Below are positions 14,501-31,857 of a stretch of 64,000 nt of DNA, one piece after another. This DNA is from a virus: IMG/VR virus record IMGVR_UViG_3300045988_154892; one strand, given 5' to 3'. The position numbers were made by a program, and so were the translations under genes. Numbering within the stretch: position 1 is the first letter of the stretch; every line of letters starts with the position of its first letter. The notes below the pieces were generated by a model. That model ran no database searches. It saw only the letters and a list, made by a program, of their open reading frames with translations, and was not told the origin of the DNA.

Positions 14501-17221
14501 TGTATCTGCATCGACATCGATAACACCATTAGCATGTAATTGATCTCCAAAATTCTTATAGTCAGATTTATATTGATCACTCTGATAATATTCTGCCCAG
14601 GACTTTCCAGAATCAATAAATGCATCATTCATATATTTCATAGCGTCATAAACACTAGAAATTTGTCTTTGAATTGCATTCTTTGTGTTTTCATCTGTAG
14701 CATTCGACAGATTCGCTTTTAGTTCATCAATATAAGAAGCAGCTTCCTTATATGCGTCAAGATTTGCAACATCACTCGTATTAGCGCTTTCTGCTTGTTT
14801 AAGATATTGTTTCTTAGATGCATTTAATTCTGCCCAGGTTTGATTATCCCCACCTTCGTCAGCAGTATTCTGCAACTCGTCAATCTGCTGCTGAATAGAA
14901 GCAAGACTGTATTGAAATTGAATATTAACAACAACATCATGATCTGTTAATGTTGAAAGATCATTTTCATATCCCGCTAATTCTTCATCCCATCCGTCAA
15001 TAAGTTTTTTATACCGATCTTTTGTAGCTCCTTCTTCCATAGAATCATAAATAGTTTTGATTCCATTTAAAGCTGACTTGTATTGATCTAACTCATCACC
15101 AGACCAAACCATATCATTAAATTCTGCACCGTAAGCCTCCAGATTATGCATCAAAACTTCTACGGCGCTTACGCTTATTCCTAATTTGTCGGCAGCGTCA
15201 GCACTGCTGTTAAAATTCTCCGTCCATTGAAAATCATTATTACCATCTGCAATAGCAAGACCAACATTCTGAAGATCCGTTAAGAAATTTTCTGCACTCT
15301 GGAATTGATCCTCATTGTCAAAATATCTCTTAACTTTGTCCTGCGCTTCTTTCCAAGCTGCTTCATAAGCCTGTGCATCAAAAGTGAATCCATCGTCTGG
15401 ATTAATTTTCTTTTGAGTCATGAACTGGGCCGCTTCTTTAAAATCATCCGTGCCAATCTGACCATTCGCAAACAATTCGTCAGCTTGAGCAAGATATTCC
15501 GCCATTGTTTTCCAGGATTTATCTTGATTATCCGTATTAAAAGCAGTTGTAACACTTGACAGACTTCCTTCTACGGTGTCAATTGCATCAGCAGCATCTT
15601 CAGCAGCCGATGCGGTTTCTTGAAGATAAGATTGTAAATCAGAAATATTATCAATTCCAAGATCGTCTAATGTAAGACCCATGCCAGCAAGAGCTTTTTG
15701 CAATTCTTCAGCGCTGCCAGCAGATTCTTTTAATTCTGCTTTAAGAGCATTCTTGCCAAAAGAACCATCGAAGAAATCACTGAGAGAATTTAATGCTTTC
15801 TGTGCGTCTGTAAGATCTTTATCAGTAATTGAACGAAGCATCTTCCTGACTTTTTCAAAATACGGCTCGTAACCAGATAGTGCAGTCAAACCCTCTCCAT
15901 TTACAGAAAAAGCATTTAATATATCTGTAAAATCAGATGCCTTATCTTGAAGTTCATCTTCAATAGAATCTACCATTTTTTGAAGTTTTGCTTCATCCTT
16001 TTCGGCTTTCTTTCTGTCTTTTTCAGATATACCTTTTTGTCCCTGTTTTTCTATTGCTTTATCTAAAAGATTTTGGTATTCTTGGTAATATGCCAAGTAA
16101 GACTCAAGAGAGCCTTTAGTATAATTAATGTCATCCTCAGTATACTTTTCTACATCAACACCAGGATTTTTAAAGAAATCTTTCATCTCTTTATTAAGAG
16201 ATTTTGTACTTAGGCTCCACAATTGCTCTGGCATATCCATATATTCAGCTTTTTCTAACAAATCTTTTGCGTCATTAGCTGCTTTTCTTTGTTCTGATGT
16301 CACGAGCTGTTCTTTTAGATTTAATGTTCTTTCTAATTCGTCATTGCCAAGCTGAATTTTTTCTATTTCAGTCTGATCAACTAAAGTAAGTTGTATGTCA
16401 TTGGCGGATTGGATTTTATCAATCATCTCATCAACAGATTCGGTACCTTCTAATGCAACATTATAATTAGAAGCTATTTCCTGAAGAGTCTGTTTATATT
16501 GATCAGCCTTTGCATTTAGATTTTCTACTTCTTTTTGAGCATTTTGTAAGTTTGTAACATGCTCTTTAACATTTTTCAGGTTTGTATCATATGTAAGATT
16601 GTACTTATTATCTGCCCATTTAAATAGTTGATAAGCAGCAATTGCCGTGCCGACAGCCGCAATAATTGGAAGCATTGTTTTCAGAGTAGCAAGCAATCCT
16701 TTGAAATAATTCGAAAGATTAGAAAAAGCTGTGCCAGCTTTTGATGCAGATTCTGGGAGTTCAACGATAGAGTCACCTAATTCTGCATTTGCATTAATAA
16801 TCTTTTTTACTTGCTCGTTATATTCTGCGGAACCTTCTTTTAGTTTTCCTAATAAATCTTCTTGTTCTAAAGTTAACTTGCCTTGATTTTGTAGAGCCTT
16901 TACTAATACTGGAGCATTATTTGCAGAATCTTTTATAGCATCTGCATAAGTTAGTTTGCCAGTTGCAGCTTTGGCAGAAAGCGTCGCATCGCTTGCTAAA
17001 GCTAAAGCTTGGCTCCTTAATTCTTTATTTAATCCTAAAACATTTGCTTTTGCTTCTATTTGCTCTGAATTAAATTTACTAATTCCGTCTGATCCAACAC
17101 CGAAAGTTGCATTAAATGAATCTTTTAAATAATTCTGAAAATCATCATATGATCCTGCTTTTTTAAAACGTTTTCCACTTAGATCACCAAAACTGCCAAA
17201 TATATTTCCCAGATCTTTAAA
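11535..17221 (-). CDS. Tape measure protein, exon 6 (about 1895 codons)
   Basis: Huge coiled-coil-rich ORF with a hydrophobic segment (LLATLKTMLPIIAAVGTAIAAYQLF) and a Ser-rich linker. The track start is a TTG at 17257 with no SD. The last 46 track residues (VNICRICLNAG...) are intron read-through. The upstream boundary (17221-17254) is uncertain. Confidence 0.7.
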
Positions 17222-17244
17222 CTGCAAATTAATTGTTAATAATG

Positions 17245-17273
17245 TTGGATTTATCAAACAATTATGATATAAT
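17245..17273 (+). promoter_or_regulatory. Sigma-70-type promoter with extended -10, for the zinc-ribbon gene at 17301
   Basis: TTGGAT, a 17-nt spacer, then TGaTATAAT. About 37 nt are near-identical to the second copy at 18098-18135. It overlaps the putative 3' end of TMP intron 5 on the other strand. Confidence 0.6.
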
Positions 17274-17300
17274 ATAGGAAATATTGACGGAGGTGATAGT

Positions 17301-17879
17301 ATGTCAAAAGTATTTTGCCCAGAATGTCAAAATATAGTAAGCAGTTATGCTGAGACATGTCCTGATTGTGGATTTCCGATTTCAAAATATATAAAAGATG
17401 CAAAACTTAATGATTTTTCAAAAACGTTTGTATGTCCAAAATGTGGATCGTTTAGCACAGCAACAGATGTAGTAGCAACTATTCAATGTGATTTCTGTGG
17501 TACGCCAATGTTTCAAACGTCTGAGTCAACGACAATTACAATTTCAAATACATCATGGCCTAAAACAGAAGACGAAATTGATTCATATATTTATTCTCTT
17601 CTCGAAAAATGTGACAAAGTAGAGGAGTATGATATAGAAGCGCATCGAATTTACAAACAAAAATTAAGAGAGAGGGTAATGGCTCGTCGCAAGCAACAAT
17701 CTAATCAGCAATCCCCTGCACCACCATCCACTAATCAACCTCACTGTCCAGTATGCCAATCCACAAATATCGAGAAGATTGGCATGTTTAAGCGTATGCT
17801 TTCTACCAGCATGTTTGGAATTGCATCTGATAAGGTAGGGAAGCAGTGGCATTGTAAAAATTGTGGGAATAATTTTTAG
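17301..17879 (+). CDS. Triple zinc-ribbon protein, paralog 1 (192 aa)
   Basis: SD GGAGGTG. Motifs CPECx10CPDCG, CPKCGx17CDFCG, a Q/P/S linker and a C-terminal HCPVCQST..HCKNCG. Paralog of 20330..20917 along its whole length. Confidence 0.75.
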   Translation: MSKVFCPECQNIVSSYAETCPDCGFPISKYIKDAKLNDFSKTFVCPKCGSFSTATDVVATIQCDFCGTPMFQTSESTTITISNTSWPKTEDEIDSYIYSLLEKCDKVEEYDIEAHRIYKQKLRERVMARRKQQSNQQSPAPPSTNQPHCPVCQSTNIEKIGMFKRMLSTSMFGIASDKVGKQWHCKNCGNNF

Positions 17880-17881
17880 GA

Positions 17882-18082
17882 TTACTCCTTGTCTATCTTC
17901 AATTGTTCCACAAGACATTTCATTTTCTCCTGCAATATACGCTGCTCTTCAGTAAGAGTAGATGGATCAGTATATATGGAAGGATAATCAGTCTGCGGAA
18001 ATGGATAATCTATGATTGAATTTGCCATAACATATTTGTGGAATTTTTCAAGCCCATAATCAATTAAAATACTATCGTACAT
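17882..18082 (-). CDS. Hypothetical 66-aa protein (convergent with 17301..17879)
   Basis: Internal ATG at 18082 follows GAGGTGAATATAAA. The track ORF begins earlier, at 18121. No recognisable family. Confidence 0.45.
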   Translation of the reverse strand: MYDSILIDYGLEKFHKYVMANSIIDYPFPQTDYPSIYTDPSTLTEEQRILQEKMKCLVEQLKIDKE

Positions 18083-18104
18083 TTTATATTCACCTCTAGA
18101 AATG

Positions 18105-18133
18105 TTGGATTTATATAACAATTGTGGTATAAT
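18105..18133 (+). promoter_or_regulatory. Sigma-70-type promoter with extended -10, for the lipoprotein gene
   Basis: TTGGAT, a 17-nt spacer, then TGgTATAAT. Duplicate of the 17245 promoter. Confidence 0.6.
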
Positions 18134-18162
18134 TTAAAATTATCAAATATATAAATAAGCGG

Positions 18163-19263
18163 ATGGGAAAATACATGAAAAGAAAACACACAATACGGAT
18201 AACAGGTCTTTTATGCTTTTCTTTTTTTATTACAAGTTGTGGACAATCATCTGCAACATCAGCTTCTAGTGTAATCAAAGAGGCAGTTAATACTGATAGC
18301 ATCAAACAGATTATTTCAGAAGATAATGAAACGACTGACACAGCTATAGACGTTTCAGATCAATCAAGCAATTTAACAACAGATAAAGTGTCAAATGTAA
18401 CATGCTCATGGGAAGATAGTGAAGTACCAATAGAAGTTGGAAATGATAATTCAAAAGCACTAATTAAAGATACAAGAATTGTTAATTCTTCATATGGCAC
18501 ATTACTGATTATGGATTTTACATATACCAACAATACTGCGCAAGCATCAGATTTTATTAATGATAGCAATTGTGATGTAAAACCATATCAAAATGGTATA
18601 GAATTAGATAGACCAGGGATAACATCCGAAGCGGGTGTTTATGATTATAGTGATGCATTTACAAATGTAAAAGATGGAGGAATAATAAATACGCAACTTG
18701 TATGGGTTCTTAAAGATACGATGAACCCAGTTGAAATTGATTTTGGAATAGATTCAAATTACAATCCTGCATATTCAAAGACATTAACTTTAACTGTCGG
18801 CAAAGACATTGAAGATAAACAAGATGAATCGCAAGAAACAAAAGAATCCGATTATAATATATCGTGGCTGAATGACAATGTACCAGAAAAAATTGGAAAT
18901 GATAATTCGTATGCAATATTAAAAAATACATCTGTTTTGAAATCCCCGTCATATGGAATCGTATTAGTAATGGATTTTGAATACACAAATAATCTGGATA
19001 AAGCTAGAAATTTTATCAATAACACACCATGCCTTGTAAAGATTTATCAAAATGGTGTTGAATTAGATAGTCCTGGAAATACATCGGAACAAGGAATATT
19101 CGATTATTCTAATGCGTTTACTGGTGTAAAAAATGGTGGAACATTAAAAACACAGTTGGTTTGGGTTTTACCAGATGATAAAAGTCCCGTAGAAGTCGAA
19201 TTTGGTTTGGATAATAATTATAAACCACAATATGATTGTACATTAAACATTTCTGAAAAATAA
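18163..19263 (+). CDS. Lipoprotein with two tandem ~140-aa beta-rich repeats (DUF4352/DUF5067-like)
   Basis: Signal peptide plus lipobox (LLCFSFFITSC|GQ). Clear internal duplication: SWEDSEVPIEVGNDNSKALIKDT..MDFTYTNN..YQNGIELD..QLVWVL versus SWLNDNVPEKIGNDNSYAILKNT..MDFEYTNN..YQNGVELD..QLVWVL. The start could be 18163 or 18175. Confidence 0.75.
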   Translation: MGKYMKRKHTIRITGLLCFSFFITSCGQSSATSASSVIKEAVNTDSIKQIISEDNETTDTAIDVSDQSSNLTTDKVSNVTCSWEDSEVPIEVGNDNSKALIKDTRIVNSSYGTLLIMDFTYTNNTAQASDFINDSNCDVKPYQNGIELDRPGITSEAGVYDYSDAFTNVKDGGIINTQLVWVLKDTMNPVEIDFGIDSNYNPAYSKTLTLTVGKDIEDKQDESQETKESDYNISWLNDNVPEKIGNDNSYAILKNTSVLKSPSYGIVLVMDFEYTNNLDKARNFINNTPCLVKIYQNGVELDSPGNTSEQGIFDYSNAFTGVKNGGTLKTQLVWVLPDDKSPVEVEFGLDNNYKPQYDCTLNISEK

Positions 19264-19306
19264 ATTGGTTCACAATATTTAGTATAATGTGGGGAGGGAA
19301 AACTAC

Positions 19307-19924
19307 ATGGCATTAATCAAATGTCCAAAATGTGGTCGTGAAAATGTTTCTAATTCTGCTGAAAGGTGTCCGTCATGCGGATACAATATTAAGGAATACT
19401 ATGACAAGTCGCATGAAAAAGACAATGAAAATAAAAGAATTGTATTAGGTATAGGTATAGTAATATTAGTCTTTGCAGTCCTTTTCCTTAAGAAAGAATC
19501 GTTCACTACTCATGACGCTGATCCTTTTAAAAAATATTATTCGAACTTTGGAAAGGATATTTCGACTGTTAATAAATCTAAAAAATACATAATAAGTTCA
19601 ACATCTGACCATAAAGGAATGTTGGTAAACAATTCTGTTAAAATATGGAATATAGATGGAAAGTTATTATTGGTAGCTAACGACCAAGATGATGATGAAC
19701 TAGGACTTTTAATATGGAGTGCGGAAAATGTTGAATTAGATAATACTCAATTAGATCATATAATTGAAAAAATGGATAAATTATATGGTAAAAACACTTA
19801 TCATTACGATATTGAAAATGATTTAAAAGTATATGATTGGGATGAACTATCCAATATGAAAATTGAATTGTTTTATCGTCCCTGTATTAAAACGATGATG
19901 ATAAGTTTTTCAACAAATGAATGA
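19307..19924 (+). CDS. Zinc-ribbon membrane protein (205 aa)
   Basis: ATG at 19307 follows GGAGGG. CPKCGx11CPSCG is followed by one TM helix (IVLGIGIVILVFAVLFL) and an extracytoplasmic domain. A TATAAT lies at 19283-19288. Confidence 0.65.
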   Translation: MALIKCPKCGRENVSNSAERCPSCGYNIKEYYDKSHEKDNENKRIVLGIGIVILVFAVLFLKKESFTTHDADPFKKYYSNFGKDISTVNKSKKYIISSTSDHKGMLVNNSVKIWNIDGKLLLVANDQDDDELGLLIWSAENVELDNTQLDHIIEKMDKLYGKNTYHYDIENDLKVYDWDELSNMKIELFYRPCIKTMMISFSTNE

Positions 19925-19941
19925 TAAGGAGATTTAACGTT

Positions 19942-20277
19942 ATGAAATGTACAGAATGTGGCAAGGAATTAACAGCAGAAGAGCAGAGCCAAGGAACTTG
20001 TTCATCTTGCGGGAAAAAGATTGAAACTCCGGCAACATCCAATACATCGGAAGAAATTTATACAACGCTTGTTGGACAATCATTGAAGATTGTGGGAATA
20101 ATTGTTCTAGTAGGTGGTTTTATTGGATCTTTCTTAATAGGAAAAGATGATTATGGTTATCTTTCTTATTCTAGCTTTTTCTTTTATCTTTTTGTATCTG
20201 TTATCGGTGGTTTGCTGATTACAGGTATGGGCGAAATTGTTAATTTTCTATATACCATTTGCAAAAAGCTAAAGTGA
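19942..20277 (+). CDS. Zinc-ribbon membrane protein (111 aa)
   Basis: ATG at 19942 follows AAGGAG. CTECGx13CSSCG is followed by two hydrophobic helices. Confidence 0.6.
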   Translation: MKCTECGKELTAEEQSQGTCSSCGKKIETPATSNTSEEIYTTLVGQSLKIVGIIVLVGGFIGSFLIGKDDYGYLSYSSFFFYLFVSVIGGLLITGMGEIVNFLYTICKKLK

Positions 20278-20329
20278 TGTCGTATAGACTTCAACTCAAC
20301 TAGGAAATATTTACGGAGGTAATATCTAT

Positions 20330-20917
20330 ATGAGTAAAGTTTTTTGCCCTGAATGTGGAAAAATTTCAAGTCAATATGCAGAAACTTGTCCTGATTGTAG
20401 TTTCCCAATAGCCAAATACGTAAAAGACGCCAATCTTACAGACTTTTCAAAAACATTTGTATGCCCTAAATGCGGTTATTGGAGCGCCATGAATAGCATT
20501 GCTGGCGAAATTATGTGTGAATACTGCCATCTTCCTATGTTTCAAACAGATGAAGATGGCGATGTAACTCTAAAAGCAACGTTAAATATGAAATCAAATG
20601 AAGAAAAAGATGCTTATATTTATTCTCTTCTAGAACGTTGCGGTAAAACAGATGAATATAGTGAAGAAGCTCATCAAAATTTCCGCCGCAAATTACACGA
20701 ATGGGCAGAAGAGGAGCGTAAAAAACCGAGCCAACCAGTTTCGCAGCAGCAATCTACTCCTTCATCTACTAATCAACCTCACTGTCCGACTTGCGGTTCT
20801 ACCGACATCATCAAAATCTCAGCAGCTAAGAAAGCTGTAGGTGCTGGGCTGTTTGGCTTGTTCAGTAAAACTGCTAAGAGTCAGTTTGAATGTAAAAATT
20901 GTGGTTATAAGTGGTAA
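20330..20917 (+). CDS. Triple zinc-ribbon protein, paralog 2 (195 aa)
   Basis: SD GGAGGT. Begins MSKVFCPECG.. like paralog 1 and has the same three Cys4 modules. Ends ..HCPTCGSTDI..ECKNCGYKW. Confidence 0.75.
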   Translation: MSKVFCPECGKISSQYAETCPDCSFPIAKYVKDANLTDFSKTFVCPKCGYWSAMNSIAGEIMCEYCHLPMFQTDEDGDVTLKATLNMKSNEEKDAYIYSLLERCGKTDEYSEEAHQNFRRKLHEWAEEERKKPSQPVSQQQSTPSSTNQPHCPTCGSTDIIKISAAKKAVGAGLFGLFSKTAKSQFECKNCGYKW

Positions 20918-20951
20918 AATTATTCTACGTATGAAAAAAGCTAAGGAACAC

Positions 20952-21146
20952 TTAGACCTGATGCATTGGGAATTGTTCAAACATTTTGAATATTAATTCG
21001 ATATTAACTTTGTCTGATCCAGCAAAAAGTGGAGGTAGTGGTTTGCCGTTTTTATCATAAATTGTTTCACATAGAATAATATCATAATCGCCACATGATT
21101 CTTTTTTATTTGGATCAATATTTGACACATATGGTTTATTATTCAT
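20952..21146 (-). CDS. Hypothetical 64-aa protein (convergent with 20330..20917)
   Basis: ATG follows GAGGTAACAAAAA. No family recognised. Confidence 0.5.
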   Translation of the reverse strand: MNNKPYVSNIDPNKKESCGDYDIILCETIYDKNGKPLPPLFAGSDKVNIELIFKMFEQFPMHQV

Positions 21147-21186
21147 TTTTTGTTACCTCGGAAAACATAAAAGAAAATTTTATAGT

Positions 21187-21357
21187 AATAAAAACAAAAA
21201 CAGCAAACTTGCTATTCCACATTGCCCTGCATGTGGCAGCACAGATATAGAGAATATCAGCACGTTAAATAGAGCTGTATCAACTGCTATGGTAGACATT
21301 GCATCGAGCAAAATTGGCAAACAATTTCACTGTAAGAATTGTGGATATGATTTTTAA
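21187..21357 (+). pseudogene. Start-less fragment of a third zinc-ribbon paralog (C-terminal module only)
   Basis: My translation gives ..KNKNSKLAIPHCPACGSTDIENISTLNRAVSTAMVDIASSKIGKQFHCKNCGYDF*, homologous to the C-termini of 17301 and 20330. There is no in-frame ATG/GTG/TTG upstream back to the stop at 21085-21087, and no SD. Confidence 0.5.
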
Positions 21358-21390
21358 GATAACCATAAAACATAAGAGAGGAAAATTGAT

Positions 21391-22125
21391 ATGATTAGTG
21401 TAAATGACTTGAAATATACAACAGTATTTATTGCTGATAATACTGAAGAACCAAGACACTCTTTTACTGGTTTTATCATAAAATTAGCAACATCTCAAGG
21501 AGAATCATATTTCCTTTGTTCTTGCGGTCATTGTTTTGACAAAAATATTATGAATATATCTTTTGTTATATCCGCTATAGACGAAAACGAAGAAATGTCA
21601 GGTATAACTTTTAATATAACTGTCTCTCCTATAAAACATCCTTCTCTTGATATCGCCTATGTCGATATAACAAATACAATAATCAAGGCCTTGAATAAAT
21701 ACAATATAATTTTTCATTTTATAGAAGAATCAGACATTATTTTAAATGATGACAGATCAAGTTTTAATGATTTGGAAGATGTCTATCTCGTTGGCTATCA
21801 AGCAGCATTAGGGTACACAATCTTAGCGTATCCTTTTATTATTAAAGGAAATACTGCATCATCTATTCAGTTCAACTTTCAAAACGGATTCTTCACTTAT
21901 GCCAATACCAAAGAAGGTTTAAGTGGATGCCCAGTTTATATCAAAGTTAATGAAAAATACAAACTACTTGGCATACATCATTCTGCTAAAATACGTTCTC
22001 TTAAAATTACTACAGACGAATTTGAAAAGAAGTATGAAGAAAGTCTTGGTCTTTCTCAGGAAGTATATGCGTTTTATATACTTGATTTTATTAGAGAACA
22101 ATATCCTCTTGTGACGGAGAAGTAG
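21391..22125 (+). CDS. Trypsin/chymotrypsin-fold serine protease, cytoplasmic (244 aa)
   Basis: SD GAGAGG. Triad candidates are His in SCGHCF, Asp in LDIAYVDI and Ser in EGLSGCPVY, followed by LLGIHHSA. No signal peptide. Confidence 0.7.
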   Translation: MISVNDLKYTTVFIADNTEEPRHSFTGFIIKLATSQGESYFLCSCGHCFDKNIMNISFVISAIDENEEMSGITFNITVSPIKHPSLDIAYVDITNTIIKALNKYNIIFHFIEESDIILNDDRSSFNDLEDVYLVGYQAALGYTILAYPFIIKGNTASSIQFNFQNGFFTYANTKEGLSGCPVYIKVNEKYKLLGIHHSAKIRSLKITTDEFEKKYEESLGLSQEVYAFYILDFIREQYPLVTEK

Positions 22126-22432
22126 CTATTTGATAAACAGATTTAACACTTTGATCACCACAAACTAGATGAGTAATAGTATCTGAAGCTTTTGTCATTT
22201 TTAAATTAGTAATTGTAATTTTTGGCTTTTTCATAAAATGATTTTTTGCATTGGAGAAAATTTTATATGGGACAATTTCCTTATCAATCAGTCCATAGTT
22301 ATATAAAGACTCCATATTTTCAAAAAAATATTTGATTGTATTATACTCATTAGTGGTTAATTCTATTGTGTGTATTGTTTGTATAGATTCCTGATGATCT
22401 GTTTTGTTTGCTGTTTGATTGATAATAATCAC
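22091..22432 (-). CDS. Hypothetical 113-aa ORF, convergent with and overlapping the protease 3' end by 35 nt
   Basis: Fills the whole gap between the two protease genes. GTG start with no good SD. The first 10 codons and 5' leader are conserved with 23099..23422 (MIIINQTANK). Confidence 0.4.
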   Translation of the reverse strand: MIIINQTANKTDHQESIQTIHTIELTTNEYNTIKYFFENMESLYNYGLIDKEIVPYKIFSNAKNHFMKKPKITITNLKMTKASDTITHLVCGDQSVKSVYQIATSPSQEDIVL

Positions 22433-22460
22433 CTGCTTTCTAATTAAGGAGAAGTAAAAT

Positions 22461-23129
22461 ATGCTTACAAAAGAGAATTTGATTCATACTGTAACAAAAA
22501 TTACTGTATTAAAAGAAAATGATGAATGTAAAATTGGTACAGGATTTTTCTATAAATACCATGCAAATAATCGAGAAAATTATGCATTAGTCTCGAATAG
22601 GCATATATTTGAGAATATGAAAAACGCTTTGTTTTCTGTCCCTATTGAGCAAAACGATCAAGTGAATCTTCTAAACAATGAAATACGTATCCAACCATAT
22701 TTACATCCACAATATGACGTTGCAGTAATTGGAATAAATGATCTAATCGATTCACCAGAATATGTAGGAAAGCTAAAAATATCTTGGATTATAAAAGAAG
22801 ATATTATAACGGAAGATTTTCCAATATCTGCAATTGAATATGCGTTAATGATTGGATATCCGTTATCATTTCAGTCTGATAATTTTGTCACTCCACTTAT
22901 TCGAAGTGGCGTTATTGCGACACCTCTAAAATCAAAATTTAATGGATTGGAACGTTTCCTTGTGGATATGGAATGCTTTAGTGGATCAAGCGGATCACCA
23001 ATATTTATTAATCGTGATAGTCAATATTATTTAGTAGGGATTGAACAATCAAGCTATTCGTATAAAGAAAAAGAAGTTGGTCTTGGAGAATGCGAAAACT
23101 ACAATGTACTTTCTTCATTCTTGCCATAA
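22461..23129 (+). CDS. Trypsin/chymotrypsin-fold serine protease, second copy (222 aa)
   Basis: SD AAGGAG. His in VSNRHIF, Asp in YDVAVIGI, Ser in FSGSSGSPIF, then LVGIEQS. No signal peptide. Only distantly related to 21391. Confidence 0.7.
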   Translation: MLTKENLIHTVTKITVLKENDECKIGTGFFYKYHANNRENYALVSNRHIFENMKNALFSVPIEQNDQVNLLNNEIRIQPYLHPQYDVAVIGINDLIDSPEYVGKLKISWIIKEDIITEDFPISAIEYALMIGYPLSFQSDNFVTPLIRSGVIATPLKSKFNGLERFLVDMECFSGSSGSPIFINRDSQYYLVGIEQSSYSYKEKEVGLGECENYNVLSSFLP

Positions 23130-23422
23130 TATTTTACAAGAATTGTCTTATAGAGGGACTCAAATTGATTTTTAGATACTTGATTCGTTTTTAACGAGTC
23201 TACAATATCAAAATATGCCTTTTTAATACGACTATCGGTTTTTCTTTGCATTAATACAGCAGATAATATATCAATATCATTCCGTAGCATTCCTTCTCGT
23301 ATATATATTTGATTATCTGAATTAATATATACATATGACATATTTTGTGAATTTAATTTATCTGAAGACACAATTCTTGTTTCTATCTTGTTTGCTGTTT
23401 GCTGAATATTAATAATAATCAC
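23099..23422 (-). CDS. Hypothetical 107-aa ORF, convergent with and overlapping the second protease by 31 nt
   Basis: Same arrangement as 22091..22432. GTG start and the shared leader GAAAG(Y)AGGTGATTATTAT. Confidence 0.4.
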   Translation of the reverse strand: MIIINIQQTANKIETRIVSSDKLNSQNMSYVYINSDNQIYIREGMLRNDIDILSAVLMQRKTDSRIKKAYFDIVDSLKTNQVSKNQFESLYKTILVKYYGKNEESTL

Positions 23423-23460
23423 CTACTTTCATAAAAAATTTTAAGAAGAGGATAAAAGAT

Positions 23461-23559
23461 ATGTCATGGAAAGGTAGAGTCAGAAGAAGTATGCAGCCAT
23501 GGCCCTGGTGGGCTATAGCGTTGTTATTCTTTGTTGCATTTTTGTTGAAAATGTTTTAG
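23461..23559 (+). CDS. 32-aa basic/hydrophobic peptide (MSWKGRVRRSMQPWPWWAIALLFFVAFLLKMF)
   Basis: My own translation; the ORF is below the track cutoff. SD AGAGGA lies 8 nt upstream. One TM-like helix after an Arg-rich N-terminus. Confidence 0.45.
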   Translation: MSWKGRVRRSMQPWPWWAIALLFFVAFLLKMF

Positions 23560-23703
23560 AAGTGGAAGAGAAGAGTATTGGAAAGTTATATTTCCATATT
23601 CTCCTCAATTTAATGTTTACTGGCACATTTCAGCCCACGCACATCCTATAGACGTACTATATTTCGATATGGATATTTTATATGACTTCCATTTGTCAAT
23701 CAT

Positions 23704-23925
23704 CTATTTTACCGTTTTTCTGTTTTCGAAACGGTTAATAGCATCTATGCTAGATTTTACATTACGAGAGAAAAAATCATTTGCTTTTTTAGGATCTAAG
23801 ATAAATGCTTGATCAGAAGACTCATCTTTTACGTCTTTATTTCCAATTATAGTTACACATGCATCAATAATACCATCTGGATCAGATTCTAATATTTCAA
23901 ATACTAATTTAGATTTAGATTCCAT
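23704..23925 (-). CDS. Hypothetical acidic 73-aa protein
   Basis: ATG follows GAGGATGTGAAAGC. It lies immediately downstream of the structured 5' segment of intron 5. Confidence 0.5.
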   Translation of the reverse strand: MESKSKLVFEILESDPDGIIDACVTIIGNKDVKDESSDQAFILDPKKANDFFSRNVKSSIDAINRFENRKTVK

Positions 23926-24440
23926 GCTTTCACATCCTCTATTGTTATTCTGTAATTTGACGATAAATATCTATATAATTTTCCTATTATTTTCCAACAA
24001 CGCCAGAAATAGGATAAAAAGCTGGCGTGTGATGAGAAAGCATCACAACTTTCGCGTACCGTGGAACATGCATTCAACGCATATAAACTATGGCATTATA
24101 TACGCTGGAGGAAGGGTGTTCTCTCTACTCCTCCCAACTTTCATATGCTTCGCTCGTCATTATGATTTTATTTTTAATTTCATAATTGCTGCTAACGTTT
24201 CACATATTACTATACGTAGTTAGGTTGGCTCGTGCGTTCTCGCGGAATTTTCATCCATTTCACTGCATTATTGCAGAATAGCGAATTCGACGAATTGATC
24301 CTCTATTTATTTTTTACAAGCACTAATCTCCCTACGTTGAAATATCATTCCATTGCTATGATATTCTCCGCATTGATAAGCCAGTTTACGATAAACTATA
24401 GCCAGGATTTTGGCTAACCTATGCTTGATATAAATTTAAA
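23926..24440 (-). ncRNA. Structured ORF-free RNA segment, the putative 5' (core) part of TMP intron 5
   Basis: About 515 nt with many perfect hairpins on the - strand: UAGCCA-AAAUCC-UGGCUA, CUGCA-AUAA-UGCAG, GGAGGA..UCCUCC, GUGAUG-CUUUCU-CAUCAC, CGCCAG..CUGGCG, and a GCGAAAG element. Similar in size to ORF-less intron 4. P1 is not clearly canonical. Confidence 0.45.
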
Positions 24441-24614
24441 ACCACCAAGTGCTGTTAAAGCTGTGCCAAGTGGCCCAAGTGTTTCAGTAATTTTAGTAAG
24501 AATTTCTAAGAATTGTGTTCCGCTATCTATGACAGCCTTGAAAGTGTCTGATGATAGAACAGAAGTTGAAAATTCTTGGAATGTAGCCTTGAATCTTTCA
24601 AGACTGTAATCGAT
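24441..24614 (-). CDS. Tape measure protein, exon 5 (58 codons)
   Basis: My - strand translation is IDYSLERFKATFQEFSTSVLSSDTFKAVIDSGTQFLEILTKITETLGPLGTALTALGG, typical of the segment after the TP901 core. The frame stops 8 codons later (FKFISSIG*, stop at 24416-24414). The 3' boundary is either 24441 or 24417. Confidence 0.65.
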
Positions 24615-25157
24615 CGTTATATTAACAATAGTCGCTAATTATTGTTTTGTTGTATATTATATATAGGAATGATACACAATAAACTCATACCTTCGCATGA
24701 GAGTAGACTATTTCTTAACCACACTCTAAATAGAAGAGCAGCAGTCACACCTTTTCGATTTAAAGGGATCTCACCTACGTTTATAGCGATTACGCCCTAC
24801 GAGTATTGAATTAGATATTCGAGATTTCCACTCTTATTTTTAATATTCTCTGTATAAATAAGAATATTTTCTAATTCCCGACATGGCTCTAGTCGTTGAA
24901 GATTTTCCCTCGACTTAACTAACATTTGATCAATGTATAACGTTAGGGAACTTTCCTGCATGAACAGCAATTCCTGATTTATATAAAATCAGTAAACTTG
25001 ATACTTAGGCTTTTGACCATATATCATCCTTACGTTGTTTCTACTTTAGTCCCATCATAATATGATTTCTCCATTATTGTGGTGTAAGGCTTTACGCGTT
25101 ACCTGCAATTAAATGTGTTCTTTATGCACATTTCTGTACATACGGGTATACGAATTT
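24615..25157 (-). mobile_element. Group I-type intron (TMP intron 4), 543 nt, ORF-less
   Basis: The 5' exon ends ..AAGGGU and the intron ends ..AUAUAACG. Splicing joins ..ELANYQKG|IDYSLERF.. in frame. Hairpin-rich with no ORF. Its P1 candidate GGGU/ACCC at nt 11-14 has U-A instead of U.G. Confidence 0.6.
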
Positions 25158-25499
25158 ACCCTTTTGGTAATTAGCTAATTCCTTTTCGGCGGAGCCTTCG
25201 GAATTTTCCGCTGTTTGATATGCTGCCTTAATAACATCTACGTTATTCAGGGCGGCTGCCAGACTATTCGACTGATTTTTGCCGGCTAATATTTCAAGAA
25301 GTGAAGCACGGTTGATATCTGTCATATCTTGCCATTTTTCACCAATACCTACAACAATGTCATAAATATCCTTGAAATTATCTTTATCTTTCATGATGTC
25401 AAAGCCACCAGTTAATGCTTTGACTTTAGCTTGTAGTTTCGAAGTAGAAGTTACTAAACCTTCAGTATCTTCACCCATAGATTCAAGCTCGGTGTCTGC
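25158..25499 (-). CDS. Tape measure protein, exon 4 (114 codons, TP901-core segment)
   Basis: ADTELESMGEDTEGLVTSTSKLQAKVKALTGGFDIM..ASLLEILAGKNQSNSLAAALNN..ELANYQKG. The track ORF 25122..25523 adds intron read-through at both ends (TTG start, tail KFVYPYVQKCA). Confidence 0.75.
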
Positions 25500-27424
25500 C
25501 ATTCTGTTACTTTCATCTGACAAACAGATTACTGACCATAATATAATTATGGCGATACGTTATTTCTAGCGTATTCTCACGTTTCATATTTAAGGGAATT
25601 ATTGCGTGACGATTACAGTTATATTAACTATAAAAGAAATCTTATAGATTTGATCGGACTGTATATTATCGTTTCCTATTTATAAGGAGAGCGAGATAAC
25701 TTCAATTTATATGTTACCATATAAATCCTGCAGTCTCTTGGGATACTTATAATTTCACATATTATTTGTACTTATAATACCAATTATAACCACCAGAATA
25801 ATGTCTCCCAGAACAAAGTGCTGACGAAATATGTTTTGCTCCAGTGGCATCAATTGCTTCCTTAATCGTTGAGTATTCTGCAATGAAATTACCATTCTTA
25901 TCAAATTGAATTACTGGAGAATAATCTCTTCTTCTATAATTCTGAGGATATGTTGTTTTTCCATAATGAATTGCATCATATATACGGTGCTTCGTATAAC
26001 CAAGCATGTTTTCACAGTCAAAAACAGAATATCCTTGATTTAATAAAATTTGAACCTTTTGCTCATCTATTTTATTTGAATAATCGAGATCAATATATGA
26101 AGGCACAGATTGGATGTCAGGGAAAAATAATTGAATCATTTCCAAAACTGTATAATCTCTCTGATCTACTGCGTAAAAATTATATCCAATAGATTTCCAA
26201 TATTTTTCTTTGATTTTATCTTTTTGCTTTTGGTCTTCAAAGTCATGGAACCAACTCTGTATTTCAATTGCGATCTTTTGATTATGATTAACAATATCCG
26301 TTGGCAGTGGATGATTGGTATCTGGATTAACACATGATTTATCTTCAACAACAGTATCTGGAAATTCATGTAACCAAACTTGTTTTAAAACTAAAGCATG
26401 TGTTGATTCTAATTGGTTACATTCACAATGAGGACATTTTGCACCTGTTTTATTAGTAGATAAATTATCTTCACTTAAACATCTTTTTCTATTAATATTA
26501 TTCCAACTATTATAGAAGGTACGACCGCATTTCAAATGTTTTATCAGTAACTTTTCGTCTCTATTTTTAAAATGTTCCGATAAACAAATATATTCACCAT
26601 TTGTATTCTTATTGAGAAATGTATTTATATTTTGAATAGAATATTTATTCGACTTTGCTATTGGAAATGGATAACATTTATTCATTATTTGATTGTATAT
26701 CACATCATATAAATACCCATTATCGTCAAGACACGTTAAAGGTGATAGTGTTATCCCTTTAAAATCTGATTCTTTAATCTTAAGGTAAAATCCATGCATT
26801 GATAAATTATTCTTAATATCGTTATACGTCAGATTCTTAGTATATCCTGAACAAGTATCACACTTATTTTTATGTCCTTGTCTTACTGAGTCAAAAGTTG
26901 TTTGAAACAAATTTCCGCATTCACATCTAAATGTTAAAATACTATTTGAATTTTCATATTTTCCAGAAACATAAGTACATTTGCATTCTTCTTTATGCAA
27001 CTCTAAATAATGTTGGATATTGTATTCAATATCAGGATTCGATTTATGGAATCTAACCGGTTTCTTTGTTGTATGTTCTAGTTTGTTAAAACATGGATAT
27101 ACAATATACCCTTCCTGATCGTAACACCGAAATTTTGAATATGAATTTTTGTATTCTCCACTTATGTAAGTATATCCATATTGTTTTAAAAGTTCCACAA
27201 TATTTTCATCTTTATGTGATCTTTTGTCGTCCATTTAATTTTACCTTTCTTTTAATAATTCATTTTTATATTCTCTTAATGATTAGAAAGGTATTGATAA
27301 ATTTATTCTAAAATTATAAGTCTTTCCTACGTCTCTGGTGTTCCCTCACCATTTGACATATATAGTTATCCTCTATGCTATTTTTAAAGTGCTGCATAGC
27401 ATACAAACTTTCCTTGTATGGAGG
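25500..27424 (-). mobile_element. Group I-type intron (TMP intron 3), 1925 nt, with homing-endonuclease gene
   Basis: The 5' exon ends ..GAGGU and pairs with intron nt 10-14 GCCUC. The 3' end GAAAGUAACAGAAUG is identical to that of intron 2. Core blocks (GACUGCAGG..AUAUGGUAACAUAU..CUCUCCU, AGUCCGAUC, CACGCAAUAAU..AAACGUGAGAA) are shared with introns 1 and 2. Confidence 0.7.
25762..27234 (-). CDS. Intron-encoded homing endonuclease (Zn-finger modules + PD-(D/E)XK-like core + C-terminal IENR/NUMOD-like DNA-binding repeat), 490 aa
   Basis: SD AAAGG. Repeated Cys-rich YxxGxYxNS..F.C.CG modules. IAIEIQSWFHDFED is nuclease-like. The C-terminus VIQFDKNGNFIAEYSTIKEAIDATGAKHISSALCSGRHYSGGYNWYYK is an intron-endonuclease repeat type. 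Confidence 0.7.
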   Translation of the reverse strand: MDDKRSHKDENIVELLKQYGYTYISGEYKNSYSKFRCYDQEGYIVYPCFNKLEHTTKKPVRFHKSNPDIEYNIQHYLELHKEECKCTYVSGKYENSNSILTFRCECGNLFQTTFDSVRQGHKNKCDTCSGYTKNLTYNDIKNNLSMHGFYLKIKESDFKGITLSPLTCLDDNGYLYDVIYNQIMNKCYPFPIAKSNKYSIQNINTFLNKNTNGEYICLSEHFKNRDEKLLIKHLKCGRTFYNSWNNINRKRCLSEDNLSTNKTGAKCPHCECNQLESTHALVLKQVWLHEFPDTVVEDKSCVNPDTNHPLPTDIVNHNQKIAIEIQSWFHDFEDQKQKDKIKEKYWKSIGYNFYAVDQRDYTVLEMIQLFFPDIQSVPSYIDLDYSNKIDEQKVQILLNQGYSVFDCENMLGYTKHRIYDAIHYGKTTYPQNYRRRDYSPVIQFDKNGNFIAEYSTIKEAIDATGAKHISSALCSGRHYSGGYNWYYKYK

Positions 27425-27460
27425 CACAAAATTTACCTCTAAGTCTGGCACTTACGGTTT
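27425..27460 (-). CDS. Tape measure protein, exon 3 (36-nt micro-exon, NMWKTVSARLRG)
   Basis: It lies between two HEG-bearing introns and supplies the missing core segment: ..QDPDRVG|NMWKTVSARLRG|ADTELESMGEDTEG.., as in TP901-type TMP cores from memory. It ends in GGU. Confidence 0.65.
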
Positions 27461-28822
27461 TCCACATATTCATTCTGTTACTTTCCCATATGTGATATGG
27501 TACCGACTATATTCTCATATAGCGATTAGTCATTTCTGGCTAATTCCCACGTTTCATTATGTTATAGCGTGGCGACTATGATAAAATCATAGAAGTGTCT
27601 ATTGACAGTTCAGACTGGATCTTCATCCTATACAAAATAGGAGAGTAGCGAAACTCTATATGTTGCCATATAAAGTATTACAGTCGTTACGGTTATTTGT
27701 ATATTCTCTATAGCATAACCAAATGATTAGGCATTAGTCTATGCTGGTTTTTCTTTTAAAAAATATGGTTGGATTATTTCTGGATTAATTGATAGATTGT
27801 TATTTTCGATATGATAATTAAAAGAATTATAATTTTCTAAAACACCATGTCGGTCAACATATTTTTGAATTAACAATTTACAAAGATCTAAGTTATTATA
27901 AATATCATTCTCCCAAAGATATAGAACTTCGTATCCATAATTATTTTTAATATATGTATGTTTTGCTTTATCTTTTGGAATTCGTTTTATTTGAATACTT
28001 CTAGTCGGATATTCTGGGTATATAATAGGATTCGTATGCCAAAAATCTCCCATTACCTCTATTACTAGATTGAAATCGTCTAAGTAATTATCCAAAGAAT
28101 AGTATTTAATGTTCTTTTCGTTTGTAAATTTAATATTCATAGAAGATAATAAATCATTGATAATAACTTGAGGTTTCGTATTTGTATCAATTTCTTTGTT
28201 TTCTAAAATTTTGACCGCACGAATACGTGATTGCTCTTTCCAATTTTCATCTTGAGAATAAATATTTGTATACCAATCCTGTCTACATTTGGACGAGCAA
28301 AAATGATGAGAAAATCTATCTAGATTTGACTTTCCAACCGATATCTTTTTGCCACACCAATCACAATCACATACTTTCCCTTGGAATCGCACATTCTTTT
28401 CACCAACATTTGTTTTCTGCCATTCACTTTGGCATTTCATTGAACAAAATTGTTGATTTAATCTTTTCGGCGTTTCGAATTGTTTATTACATATTGGACA
28501 TATTCTATATTCATACGTCTGTTTATGCTGATATTCCATCTGGCATTTTGTACTACAAAAATGATGTTTTGCTTTATTGTATTGTGTTTTAGTTTGATAA
28601 ATTTCTTTTCCGCAAGTTTCACACGGAATAGTATAACCTGTTTTTGAACCCTTTTTAGGTATAAGATCATCTCCTTTATTATTTTATATAAACGTTCCCT
28701 TCCTAATTGAAACGTCATAAGAATATACAAATCTTACCTCGGTCTTGTCCACTTCTGGATATTAACCGATATAGCTACTTTTATTTTCATTACATTACTG
28801 CAAAGGTAGGCAATATGTTTCC
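27461..28822 (-). mobile_element. Group I-type intron (TMP intron 2), 1362 nt, with homing-endonuclease gene
   Basis: The 5' exon ends ..GUAGGU and pairs with intron nt 12-17 GCCUAC (6 bp, compensatory relative to introns 1 and 3). It ends GAAAGUAACAGAAUG. The core is homologous to introns 1 and 3. Confidence 0.7.
27739..28539 (-). CDS. Intron-encoded homing endonuclease, Vsr-like (EDxHD-type) PD-(D/E)XK, 266+ aa
   Basis: NLVIEVMGDFWHTNP..KDKAKHTYIKNNYGYEVLYLWENDI is Vsr-like. There are repeated CxxC...FCSxKCQxE(Y/W)Q zinc modules. The frame stays open about 150 nt upstream of the ATG (to ~28690) and encodes another such module without a canonical start. Confidence 0.65.
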   Translation of the reverse strand: MEYQHKQTYEYRICPICNKQFETPKRLNQQFCSMKCQSEWQKTNVGEKNVRFQGKVCDCDWCGKKISVGKSNLDRFSHHFCSSKCRQDWYTNIYSQDENWKEQSRIRAVKILENKEIDTNTKPQVIINDLLSSMNIKFTNEKNIKYYSLDNYLDDFNLVIEVMGDFWHTNPIIYPEYPTRSIQIKRIPKDKAKHTYIKNNYGYEVLYLWENDIYNNLDLCKLLIQKYVDRHGVLENYNSFNYHIENNNLSINPEIIQPYFLKEKPA

Positions 28823-28973
28823 ACCTACGCGGTCTGGGTCCTGTAGTGTTGTATTGGTTCCAGTGATTAAAGCAATTGATTTTGAGAGGCTCGTATGACT
28901 CGCATTAAATGAAGCTGCACTACGCTGCAACGCTTCACCAATACCGTCTGATCCAATTGCGAAATTATTTGCT
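28823..28973 (-). CDS. Tape measure protein, exon 2 (151 nt)
   Basis: My translation is (V)ANNFAIGSDGIGEALQRSAASFNASHTSLSKSIALITGTNTTLQDPDRVG, a hallmark TP901-family TMP core sequence. No start codon. A TGA lies in frame just upstream. Confidence 0.8.
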
Positions 28974-29281
28974 CATTAAATTTGTTACTTCTTTTATTCT
29001 CCACAAATAAAAAAGAGTAGGTCATTTCTGCCTACTTCTCACGTTTTAAAATATTCGATTATTGCGTGAGATCGGACTATATATTCTTCCTATTACAATA
29101 GGAGAGCAACTTCACTAAATTATGTCTCCATAATAAAGCCTGTAGTCTCTACGCATTCTTGATAAAAATCAAGTCTTTGCTCGGTCTTAGCTATCTCTAG
29201 CCTTTAACCGATATAGTTGCTATCAATATGTATTAAGCACATAAAGCATATACATTACTGCATATGGAGGCAGCTATGTTT
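28974..29281 (-). mobile_element. Group I-type intron (TMP intron 1), 308 nt, ORF-less
   Basis: The 5' exon ends ..GAGGU and pairs with intron nt 11-15 GCCUC. The intron ends ..GUAACAAAUUUAAUG. Splicing gives ..VDKFNEV|ANNFAIG.. The core is homologous to introns 2 and 3. Confidence 0.7.
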
Positions 29282-31857
29282 ACCTCATTAAATTTATCCA
29301 CAATTGATTCAGCCTCATCAGCTTGCATATTAAAACCTTGTAACGTAGAAACCAAACTTTCTGAAGCCGATTCCTGCGTCATATTATCTCCAACTCTCTG
29401 ATACAAGGTTGTAACATCAGAAAGTTTCTTGGCATCGTCAAGCGACCAACCCAACTTTGACCAATCCGCAGTACTACTAATTACATCACTAACTGTAGCA
29501 CCATATTTCTTGGCACTTTCAGCAGCCTGATCCCAGTACTGACTTAATTGGCTCTCCGATGCGTCACTTGCGACTTTTGCCAGCTCAATCTGAGCATCAT
29601 TAATTTCCTTTACATTAGAAACAACCTTTGATGGAATTTCCATAACGACATTCTGTAACATGCCGTAAATTCCCGTAAACTGAGCAATTTGATTAACAGC
29701 ACGTTTTGTATCTTGCCAAAAACTTGCACCTGTTAATCCTTCGGCAGAAATTTTTGCCTTCAAATCTCGTGCTTTAGCATCAACTTCTAGCTTTTGTCCT
29801 TCTGTTGTTACATTTTTATAAGCATCACGGACTTCTTCAAGCTGTGCCTTATATTTCTTCCATGCCTTGCTATTGTTGTTGATATAAGATTGCATCTCGT
29901 TTGACGCACGTAAAGCGACACCAGGTGCGAGAGTAGCAGTTTCCTCTGCCTTGACCTGTTTTATCGCTGTCTTATATTTTTCTTCCTCTTCAGTCATCTT
30001 CTGAAGATTCTTACTTAAACGTTCAACCTCTTCGTCACTAAGATCAGAAACCTTAGTGTCTTTCATAGACTTTTCAAAGTCTTCACGGATCTCTTTGAAT
30101 TGTTTTAAGTTTTCTCTTGCACGAGTTAGAGATTCAGAAGTCTGCCCTTCATATTTAGAGAGATCATTTTTATAACCAGCTTCCGTTGCAGAATATTTGC
30201 CTGTTGCTAACTCTTTTTGAACTTCCGCGAGCTTTTTGCGCGCATTAATTTCCTGCTCGATATTAGCAATGGTTTTTGAATTGTCATAATCAACAGCCTT
30301 TGTAATTCCAGAATCCTTTGATGTATAAGCCGTTCTCAACTCATCCAGTTTATCTAATTGTGATTTACTTGCAAAACCATCAGAACTTTGTACGAGCTTG
30401 TCGATTTTATCAATAGTTTTCTGAAGTGATGTGCTGTCAAGATTTTTAGATAAAGAATCGCCAAGTGTTTTTGCAGTTGTTTCGACTTCACTTAGTTTTG
30501 AATTTAAAATATCCGCATCCGCAGCGATTTGAGTTAAGTTACTATCCGATCTTTTTGACAATTCCGTTTTAATACTGTTTTGCTTTTCGTGAATGGTTTT
30601 AACGGCAGCGTCAAATGAGTCTAATATGTTTTCTGACCCTTTTTGTCCGGCATATTTTGATCTTATTTTTTCAAACTTGGCATCCAACTGTTGAATAGAC
30701 GCATCTGAAACTAACTCTTTAACTTGAGCTACTTTCTTTTCAAGAGACTCTTGTGTTTTCTTAGCGGTTTTATCCACGGCAGAAGAACTGTTTTTAGAAG
30801 TCTTTTCCATTGTGCTATTGACAAGTGTCATTACATTTTTAAACTCTTGCCCAGCAGATGTACATTCATCAAACTTTGCAGTGATCTGATCCATTGATGC
30901 GCCAGAATTAACAAGATCCGACAATTCCTTTTCAAGCGACGTTATAGTTGAGTCAAGCGTCCGCGCTCTTTCAATGGCTTCTGTTGATTGTCCAGAATAA
31001 TTATTTAACTGCTTTGTTCGTAACCCTTGACGAATAGCAGTATTGTCATCATTCCCGTAAGCTTTTATGGTATTATCATTTTCTTTTCTGTAACTATTGT
31101 ATCCATTCGACTTTCGTTGGAAATGAGCTAAAGATTTTTGCTCAAGTTCGTCATTGTAAAATCCTAATTTTCTTGCATCAGAAATGTTTGTTCGAATTTG
31201 AGTCATTTCGTCTCGCAAATCAGAAATTCTACCTTTTACATAAGCTTGATCTCCAGTAGCAACTTTACCTTTAGCAGATTTCGTTTTTAGAGAGTAATAC
31301 TCTGTAATATCCTTATTTAACTGAGAATATGCTTTACGAAGATCAACTACGGTGGCTGTTTCAGATTTTAATTCGCCTTTATCATTATAATTTTGTTGTA
31401 CTCCGTTTGACTTTGTATAACTATGAGATGTAGAGGACTTGCCGTTTTTTCCATAACGAGTAGATCGTACAACTTTGTCAGCATTTATTCCATCAAGCTG
31501 ATCTTTATCATCCGCAGTTTTTTTTGATGATTTTGTCTTAGTTGTTGATTTCTTAGACTTTTTTTTGATCTTTTTATCTAGATCATCTATTTTCTTTTCT
31601 GCAGTAGACGAAACATCTGTATCAACCGAAATTTTTCTCTTTTTTTTTACTTTTTTATCTAACTTATCAAGTTCAGAATCATCAACCTTTGGCTTAATAT
31701 TTGTGCCAGCAAGTTCTTGAAGAGCTTTATTTGTTGCCTCCAAAGTCTCTTTTAGATTTTTTGTATCATTGGTAATCTCTTTAATACCTTGACTGATTTT
31801 GTCTTCCATTTCGGCTCTGATTTTTACTTCGCCTATATATTGTTTTGAGTCAGACAT
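29282..31857 (-). CDS. Tape measure protein, exon 1 (858 codons + 2 nt)
   Basis: ATG follows GGAGG. Lys-rich, coiled-coil N-terminal region ending in the TP901 core start (..ESIVDKFNEV). The track tail NIAASICSNVYALCA is intron read-through. Confidence 0.8.

Follow-up and report, generated by a model that had tools for sequence, protein, structure and literature searches.

Two tandem PDC-S45-type proteases and their convergent small open reading frames in an accessory island of a putative large gut phage

Gene organization of the locus

The viral DNA analyzed here (IMG/VR record IMGVR_UViG_3300045988_154892; hereafter the window, 64,000 nucleotides (nt) in full) carries two predicted trypsin-fold serine protease genes in tandem, each met at its 3′ end by a small open reading frame (ORF) on the opposite strand. 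The proteases are labelled P1 and P2 and the small ORFs S1 and S2, with lengths given in amino acids (aa).

21391–22125, + strand: P1, predicted stand-alone trypsin-fold serine protease, 244 aa; triad H47/D87/S178 (own numbering, counted from the sequence)
22091–22432, − strand (the phage main strand): S1, probable small phage ORFan, 113 aa counted from GTG
22461–23129, + strand: P2, predicted stand-alone trypsin-fold serine protease, 222 aa; triad H48/D86/S177
23099–23422, − strand: S2, probable small clade-restricted ORFan, 107 aa counted from GTG

The convergent genes overlap tail to tail by 35 nt (P1/S1) and 31 nt (P2/S2), and the GTG of S1 lies only 28 nt from the ATG of P2, the gap between the proteases being filled entirely by S1. 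The strand alternates gene by gene, with 28-nt divergent gaps and 31–35 nt convergent overlaps. The ORF list agrees in position, strand and overlap with the initial annotation, which had been made from the letters and a list of ORFs. The His/Asp/Ser motifs picked out there are the invariant catalytic columns of a 25-sequence family alignment including P1 and P2, in which H48, D86 and S177 (P2 numbering) are conserved throughout, as are the G175, G178 and P180 columns of the GxSGxP nucleophile motif. The N-termini of both proteases, read from the sequence, are free of any hydrophobic signal-like stretch, in line with the absence of a signal peptide noted earlier. S1 and S2 have no protein similarity by BLASTP and share, again as first described, only a 5′ stretch of ~45 nt.

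Nearly all long ORFs of the window lie on the minus strand, and the minus-strand genes flanking the locus include tape-measure pieces, minor-tail-like proteins, and HNH endonucleases. The tape-measure gene on one side and a giant (distal) tail gene of 1938 aa on the other enclose a plus-strand island (from 17301 to about 23560) to which P1 and P2 belong, accompanied by Zn-ribbon proteins and a DUF5067 lipoprotein as further cargo. S1 and S2 are co-oriented with the phage structural genes, and P1 and P2 run backwards. Close relatives of P1 and P2 are found on IMG/VR viral contigs of 199–216 kb and on human-gut metagenome contigs, and the element looks like a human-gut phage of ~200 kb. No P2 relative was found in a scan of 185,579 species-representative genomes, and no GenBank phage was matched by megablast with the island. 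The earlier placement of these genes in a prophage is accordingly unsupported, the known relatives being large viral contigs absent from the species-representative genomes. A metagenome scan with P1 returned near-identical copies only, so that no P1 lineage in a different context was obtained.

Family assignment of the proteases

The ORF proteins were compared with the Pfam, PADLOC, PHROG, and NCBIfam profile libraries and, by profile searches, with the PDB. The PADLOC model PDC-S45 (hidden Markov model PDLC05022) matched P2 with an E-value of 4.7e-40 (135 bits) and P1 with 8.8e-19 (65.5 bits), over model positions 17–216 of 293. The LmuA (Lamassu) protease domain was matched more weakly than PDC-S45 by both proteins, and the RT-protease XI and Avs2 protease domains by P2 only. 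The sole significant PHROG match was phrog_7688, annotated as "unknown function" (P2, E 5.7e-33; P1, E 6e-11). In Pfam, P2 lay barely above the gathering threshold of Trypsin_2 (28.7 vs 27.6 bits); P1 did not match Trypsin_2 and had a sub-threshold match to Peptidase_C3 only, and is assigned to the protease family because of its PADLOC and PHROG matches and its 27% identity to P2 (E 5e-16). As the identity is only 27%, P1 and P2 are regarded as old paralogues rather than the outcome of a recent duplication. The nearest solved structures by sequence profile were S1B proteases, the staphylococcal SplE and V8-type glutamyl endopeptidases (E about 1e-3).

Both proteins consist of the protease domain only (Pfam, family alignment) and are short forms, with 222–244 aa vs about 270–300 aa for most of the family. 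According to the family alignment, a loop of ~17 residues following the catalytic Ser is absent from them, as is a C-terminal helix extension; no domain is missing, because other short forms occur in the same alignment. It was also considered that S1 and S2 are the missing or invertible C-terminal part (~75 residues) of P1 and P2 relative to the PDC-S45 model. This was rejected: the difference consists of loops and the helix extension, other short forms exist, and S1 and S2 do not match the PDC-S45 model; no flanking inverted repeats were found at the locus. The last ~10 residues of P1 (REQYPLVTEK) run past the family C-terminus and form the overlap with S1. No sensor gene (STAND, Hachiman, reverse transcriptase (RT) and others) is fused to P1 or P2 or present in the island.

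P1 and P2 are thus predicted, from sequence comparison, to be stand-alone cytoplasmic trypsin-fold serine proteases of the PDC-S45/PHROG 7688 candidate defence family. The initial annotation, which had proposed cytoplasmic trypsin-fold proteases with a defence flavour, is borne out by the matches to PDC-S45 and LmuA (both proteins) and to RT-protease XI and Avs2 (P2). Its remark that no described system was recognised does not hold for the proteases, PDC-S45 being a listed, though uncharacterised, candidate; the family is a bioinformatic candidate only, which the one paper found to mention it lists as hypothetical. Their role would be proteolysis in phage–phage or phage–host conflict, by analogy with the related domains of the Avs2, Lamassu and RT-protease systems, and they may exclude competitors or cleave host factors. 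A function as prohead (maturation) proteases, which the initial annotation had named as an ordinary alternative, was rejected: phrog_7688 is the only PHROG family significantly matched, and P1 and P2 are located between the genes for tape measure and tail, on the strand opposite to these and outside the head module.

Coding potential of the small open reading frames

S1 differs from an 83%-identical copy in locus L011 (L-numbers denote the fetched related loci) by 52 substitutions, none of which creates a stop codon, and its ratio of nonsynonymous to synonymous substitution rates (dN/dS) of 0.25 is the lowest of the six frames. S1 homologues differ by four indels, each of which preserves the reading frame (3, 1, 10 and 3 codons). 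For S2, dN/dS is about 0.26–0.41 on few substitutions, and each of its 15 homologues is at least 88% identical; two C-terminal variants, P0130 and P0131, correspond to one contig end and one single deletion variant. The codon-usage log-odds, trained on the long genes of the window, were 0.22 for S1 and 0.19 for S2, compared with 0.28 ± 0.09 for random 300-nt pieces of real genes and −0.27 ± 0.12 for the best antisense frame, which places both ORFs ~4 standard deviations above the antisense mean and within ~1 of the real-gene mean. S1 and S2 are therefore probably genuine small phage genes, and the lack of coding signal that the initial annotation had allowed for was not observed.

An exhaustive search of 1.84 billion cluster representatives yielded no relatives of S2 beyond one phage clade. 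Neither small protein had a significant match in Pfam, PADLOC, PHROG, NCBIfam or PDB (best sub-threshold E 0.015); the profile searches against the PDB gave chance matches only, and NCBIfam gave none. The AlphaFold2 models were of low confidence, with pLDDT values of 53.5 (S1) and 50.3 (S2), and no obvious transmembrane or amphipathic pore features could be read from either sequence.

The shared leader and translation initiation

The stretch common to S1 and S2 occurs as two leader copies, the second of which adjoins a further plus-strand ORF.

22398–22440, − strand: leader copy 1, predicted extended Shine-Dalgarno sequence (AGAAAGCAGGTGAT) plus the first ~10 S1 codons
23382–23430, − strand: leader copy 2, a direct repeat with copy 1, the two bracketing the P2+S2 cassette
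23461–23559, + strand: putative 32-aa hydrophobic ORF (MSWKGRVRRSMQPWPWWAIALLFFVAFLLKMF), adjoining the last leader copy

The 19-nt leader core, GAAAGYAGGTGATTATTAT, is present exactly twice in the window vs 0.08 occurrences expected (matches with up to 3 mismatches), and the leader is carried by several small genes of these islands. In L011–L014, the small gene o58 begins with an ATG placed immediately behind GAAAGCAGGTGAT-TATT, and o94 of L011 has the variant GAAAGTAGGTGTTCATT before its ATG. The leader is read as an extended Shine-Dalgarno sequence with its spacer because the ATG stands directly after the same sequence in o58 and after the variant in o94. It agrees at 13 of 15 positions (S1) and 12 of 15 (S2) with AGAAAGGAGGUGAUC, which we take to be the canonical Firmicute anti-Shine-Dalgarno complement, a consensus that may not be that of the host. 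The ribosome-binding sites of the phage are Firmicute-type.

At the position of this ATG, S1 has ATC (22423–22421) and S2 has ATT (23413–23411), and ATC or ATT was found there in every locus examined (S2 in L001–L010; S1 in L010, L011, L016, L035 and L041). The GTG chosen by the ORF callers is the only canonical start of S1 and S2 (within 22421–22432 and 23411–23422, respectively) and lies inside the Shine-Dalgarno sequence itself. Initiation of S1 at ATC 22423–22421 and of S2 at ATT 23413–23411 is likely. The leader and first ~10 codons are thus common to S1 and S2, as had been noted initially; the GTG start is doubtful, since it falls within the Shine-Dalgarno sequence.

The 32-aa plus-strand ORF, which in the window comes after the S2 leader, directly adjoins the S1 leader in L035 and L041, and MSWKGRVRRSMQPWPWWAIALLFFVAFLLKMF is kept at this same joint (L035 1313–1408, L041 7090–7185; in L016 with ATA for ATG). 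The ~45 nt leader appears, from these comparisons, to be also the short-homology joint for gain and loss of the P2+S2 cassette.

The absence of a canonical start codon at the position defined by the Shine-Dalgarno sequence would suit the view that S1 and S2 are untranslated accidents of an AT-rich spacer, with the leader instead regulating the plus strand, for example as a promoter or operator that controls P2 and the 32-aa ORF. The leader does lie 20–30 nt upstream of the ATG of the next plus-strand gene, and the confinement of S2 to one phage clade and the poor structure models point the same way. Yet the annotated frame of S1 has the lowest dN/dS (0.25, with 52 substitutions and no stop), 4/4 indels among its homologues preserve the frame, the codon scores stand ~4 standard deviations over the best antisense frames, and other small genes have an ATG behind the identical leader, all of which makes this view most improbable.

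Comparison of related loci

The neighbourhoods were compared by tblastn of reference proteins against 45 related loci and the window. S2 invariably follows P2-type proteases (80% identity or more), just as S1 invariably follows P1. P1+S1 occurs without P2+S2 in L016, L035, L041 and L042, and P2+S2 without P1+S1 in L001–9, L022–23, L026–30 and L032; loci with both pairs, and one with neither (L019), also occur. Each protease and its small ORF are thus gained and lost together among closely related phages, in keeping with the pairing proposed at the outset. Such presence/absence polymorphism among near-identical phages, in cargo reversed relative to the flanking operon and with mapped joints, is what characterizes a moron or accessory cassette, and the composition of the pairs follows from the cassette joints lying in the leaders.

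S1 is also present without a protease. At about 80% identity and in the same syntenic slot, it occurs on three related contigs at four loci (L011/L015, L019, L020), and in L015, L019 and L020 it follows the same pair of a DUF6864 gene and a 112-aa gene and is itself followed by co-directional small genes. Homology between L019 and L016 (96% identity over 2 kb) ends within 2 nt of the P1 stop codon; in the P1-bearing phages, the last ~10 codons of S1 are the antisense of the P1 3′ end. Because homology breaks at the P1 stop codon, the P1/S1 overlap is interpreted as an insertion joint.

The small ORF is not conserved beside related proteases, P0005 (50% identical to P2) being followed by an unrelated 58-aa ORF and P0006 (45% identical) by an unrelated 85-aa ORF. 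L010 has a window-type P2 (99%) together with the S2 allele found in L001; the P2 of L001 itself shows only 82% identity. The same convergent layout is seen in non-protease cargo, namely in the pairs of a 250-aa HExxH gene with o64 (45-nt overlap), a 252-aa HExxH gene with o65, and a 315-aa Zn-ribbon gene with o66. The first of these has left traces in the window, where o64 persists though its 250-aa HExxH neighbour is a remnant.

20841–20996, + strand: HExxH gene remnant (C-terminus of the 250-aa protein that is intact in L001 and L010)
20952–21146, − strand: o64, a main-strand small ORF, kept here; in relatives it converges on the 250-aa HExxH gene

Distant family members were collected by a profile scan with a trimmed alignment, giving 49 non-redundant genomic loci. 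A convergent ORF of at least 50 aa lies near the stop codon in 13/49, mostly in GC-rich DNA; the downstream genes are mutually unrelated (serine recombinase, Mob_Pre, Schlafen/AlbA2, GTPase and others), and no conserved partner was found among the 49 loci. In low-GC metagenome-assembled genomes of Clostridia and Bacilli, distant PDC-S45-like proteases stand directly upstream of a serine recombinase, a Mob_Pre relaxase, or a Schlafen/AlbA2-HATPase gene, which suggests that they are carried on small mobile elements. Loci of such distant PDC-S45-like proteases are the following.

L050, 3824–5053
L046, 2804–4072
L070, 3844–5337

Origin of the convergent arrangement

In the explanation to which we give a probability of roughly 0.6, the proteases, of PDC-S45 type, are cargo carried backward by an island prone to recombination, S1 and S2 are unrelated forward-strand ORFans, and the leader combines a strong ribosome-binding site with a short-homology joint. 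P1 and P2 would be anciently diverged paralogues carried in reverse orientation by a hypervariable accessory island. A row of small forward genes would have received backward cargo in the spaces separating them and, in part, within their 3′ ends, and the pattern of a protease with a convergent ORF would be the product of such insertion. The overlaps of 31–35 nt would have arisen as each frame runs into the antisense of its neighbour until a stop codon is met, and S1 and S2 would be main-strand phage ORFans rather than dedicated protease partners. The protease-free S1, the unrelated ORFs beside P0005 and P0006, and the same layout in other cargo leave the dedicated protease–partner or toxin–antitoxin system suggested by the initial annotation unsupported.

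Several points weigh against this explanation. A convergent small ORF lies directly at the 3′ end in all four protease lineages (P1, P2, P0005 and P0006), a regularity that random insertion does not fully explain. In the closely related phages sampled, P1 was never found without S1, nor P2 without S2. Orphan antitoxin or immunity genes are common, so the occurrence of S1 without P1 is compatible with P1 needing S1.

The first two of these points are the strength of the reading in which a protease and its adjoining small ORF function together as a two-gene module, with the small protein as an inhibitor or antitoxin, or as a cleavage-activated effector like Pepco or EACC1. Across about 40 related loci, P1+S1 and P2+S2 are always inherited together, and they move as cassettes; the convergent ORF recurs in all four protease lineages, and the activation of ~117-aa proteins by adjacent trypsin-like proteases is a documented defence logic (PMC12642450). 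However, the co-inheritance follows trivially from joints within the leaders, S1 occupies the same slot without a protease, the P2 and S2 alleles are shuffled in L010, and the small ORFs beside related proteases are mutually unrelated, which argues against co-evolution. S1 and S2 also have no significant family or PDB match and no obvious pore features, and the known modules are co-directional with a sensor-fused protease, whereas here the genes are convergent and the protease stands alone. We consider a two-gene module distinctly unlikely. In a related proposal, which we find highly doubtful, the regular alternation itself is functional, and a fast-evolving forward small protein, translated at a low level from AUU or AUC behind a long Shine-Dalgarno sequence, would restrain the protease or serve as its cleavage-activated substrate.

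Coupling could also take place at the RNA level and would be compatible with the insertion of backward cargo. Main-strand transcription of S2 and S1, antisense to P2 and P1 (and the reverse), would then silence the proteases by transcriptional interference or duplex formation, irrespective of the function of the S proteins. The alternating strands with their 28-nt divergent gaps and 31–35 nt convergent overlaps are suited to it, no intrinsic terminator-like site was found on either strand at 17000–24200, so that a transcript of one strand must cover the genes of the other, and perfect TGnTATAAT boxes are present at two plus-strand genes at the start of the island. The basis of this proposal is architectural, however: promoter-like and terminator-like sites occur at chance frequency (the promoter and terminator scans and the count of TGNTATAAT were all at chance level), a terminator-like hairpin at 24416–24399 stands immediately behind the tape-measure stop codon and makes it uncertain that transcription reads through from the structural operon, and the position of the overlaps is already explained by the insertion joint. 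RNA-level coupling is accordingly regarded as fairly unlikely.

Other features of the island and the window

Directly upstream of P1 lies the remnant of another cargo gene.

21200–21357, + strand: 3′-end remnant of a Zn-ribbon gene, by eye closely like the C-terminus of the 315-aa Zn-ribbon protein of L011

Intact Zn-ribbon genes stand before the protease in L011 and L045, and three of the protease lineages (P1, P0005 and P0006) lie directly downstream of such a gene. Relatives carry other conflict-type cargo in the same slot of the island, namely a SocA_Panacea protein of 217 aa with a 110-aa protein (L002 2710–3695), a 98-aa ORF overlapping a 362-aa HTH_3 protein with an HExxH-like HEISH motif (L011 6318–7665), and the pair of DUF6864 (115 aa) and 112-aa genes (L015 11540–12232, L016 4006–4698).

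Next to the island, the tape-measure gene (24417–31857, −) is in pieces, with HNH endonuclease ORFs (25762–27234 and 27739–28539) between the fragments. Its last part is split by an ORF-less insertion of 543 nt (24615–25157) that is absent from the relative L001 and contains a sub-threshold group I intron match (24684–24869; 22.5 bits, E 0.016). A full-length GOLLD RNA (RF02032; 195.9 bits vs a gathering threshold of 150) is located at 63303–63761 (−), beside tRNA-Ile at 63200–63274 (−). The window encodes five phage tRNAs, the others being a Leu-taa, Ser-tga and Tyr-gta cluster (52468–52771, −) and Trp-cca (57905–57978, −).

Comparison with known systems

P1 and P2 resemble PDC-S45/PHROG 7688 in the strong profile match across the protease core, the invariant H/D/S triad, and the GSSGSP motif, and likewise in being stand-alone genes with no conserved neighbour that are carried on mobile elements. 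They are unlike PDC-S45 in their shorter length (222–244 vs about 270–300 aa), without the post-Ser loop and the C-terminal helix extension, and in forming two diverged tandem copies on a phage of ~200 kb instead of lying on a bacterial chromosome or small prophage.

In the protease–effector defence modules, a trypsin-like protease is combined with Pepco, EACC1, a metallo-β-lactamase (MBL) or an α/β-hydrolase (Evans et al. 2025, PMC12642450). The present locus is similar in placing a defence-type trypsin-like protease, with a domain related to the LmuA protease and, for P2 only, the Avs2 protease, beside a protein of ~110 aa without known enzymatic function. It differs in that P1 and P2 have no fused sensor, the genes are convergent rather than co-directional, protease and partner show no co-evolution, and S1 occurs alone. 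Membership of S1 and S2 in an effector family found no support, as neither gave a match above chance in Pfam, PADLOC, NCBIfam, or PDB, the presence of Pepco and EACC1 in the Pfam copy used being unconfirmed.

Reversed cargo between tail genes, cargo presence or absence in near-identical genomes, short direct repeats at the cassette joint, and gene remnants are all shared with phage morons and hyperplastic accessory regions, where late operons take up cargo genes that are reshuffled at short stretches of conserved sequence. Unlike in morons, the joint here is the translation-initiation region of small forward genes (extended Shine-Dalgarno sequence plus first codons), and the cargo alternates strictly with these genes. 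With type II toxin–antitoxin systems, the locus has in common a potentially toxic enzyme beside a small protein on a mobile element, whereas its genes are convergent and overlap at their 3′ ends instead of forming a co-directional operon, no DNA-binding or antitoxin domain is recognisable in either small protein, and the small ORF is not kept beside related proteases.

Implications

What is new at this locus is the occurrence of phage-borne, tandem members of a known candidate family; the combination of a protease and a convergent partner is unsupported as a unit. If the partner reading were nevertheless true, the locus would represent a new kind of protease–partner module, encoded by the phage rather than the host. 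The locus also offers a worked example of how a striking gene-pair pattern can arise by cassette insertion at a shared translation-initiation sequence, without functional coupling. For the PDC-S45 family, a large gut phage with two diverged copies provides a compact natural pair for probing whether its role may lie in competitor exclusion, host takeover, or self-regulation.

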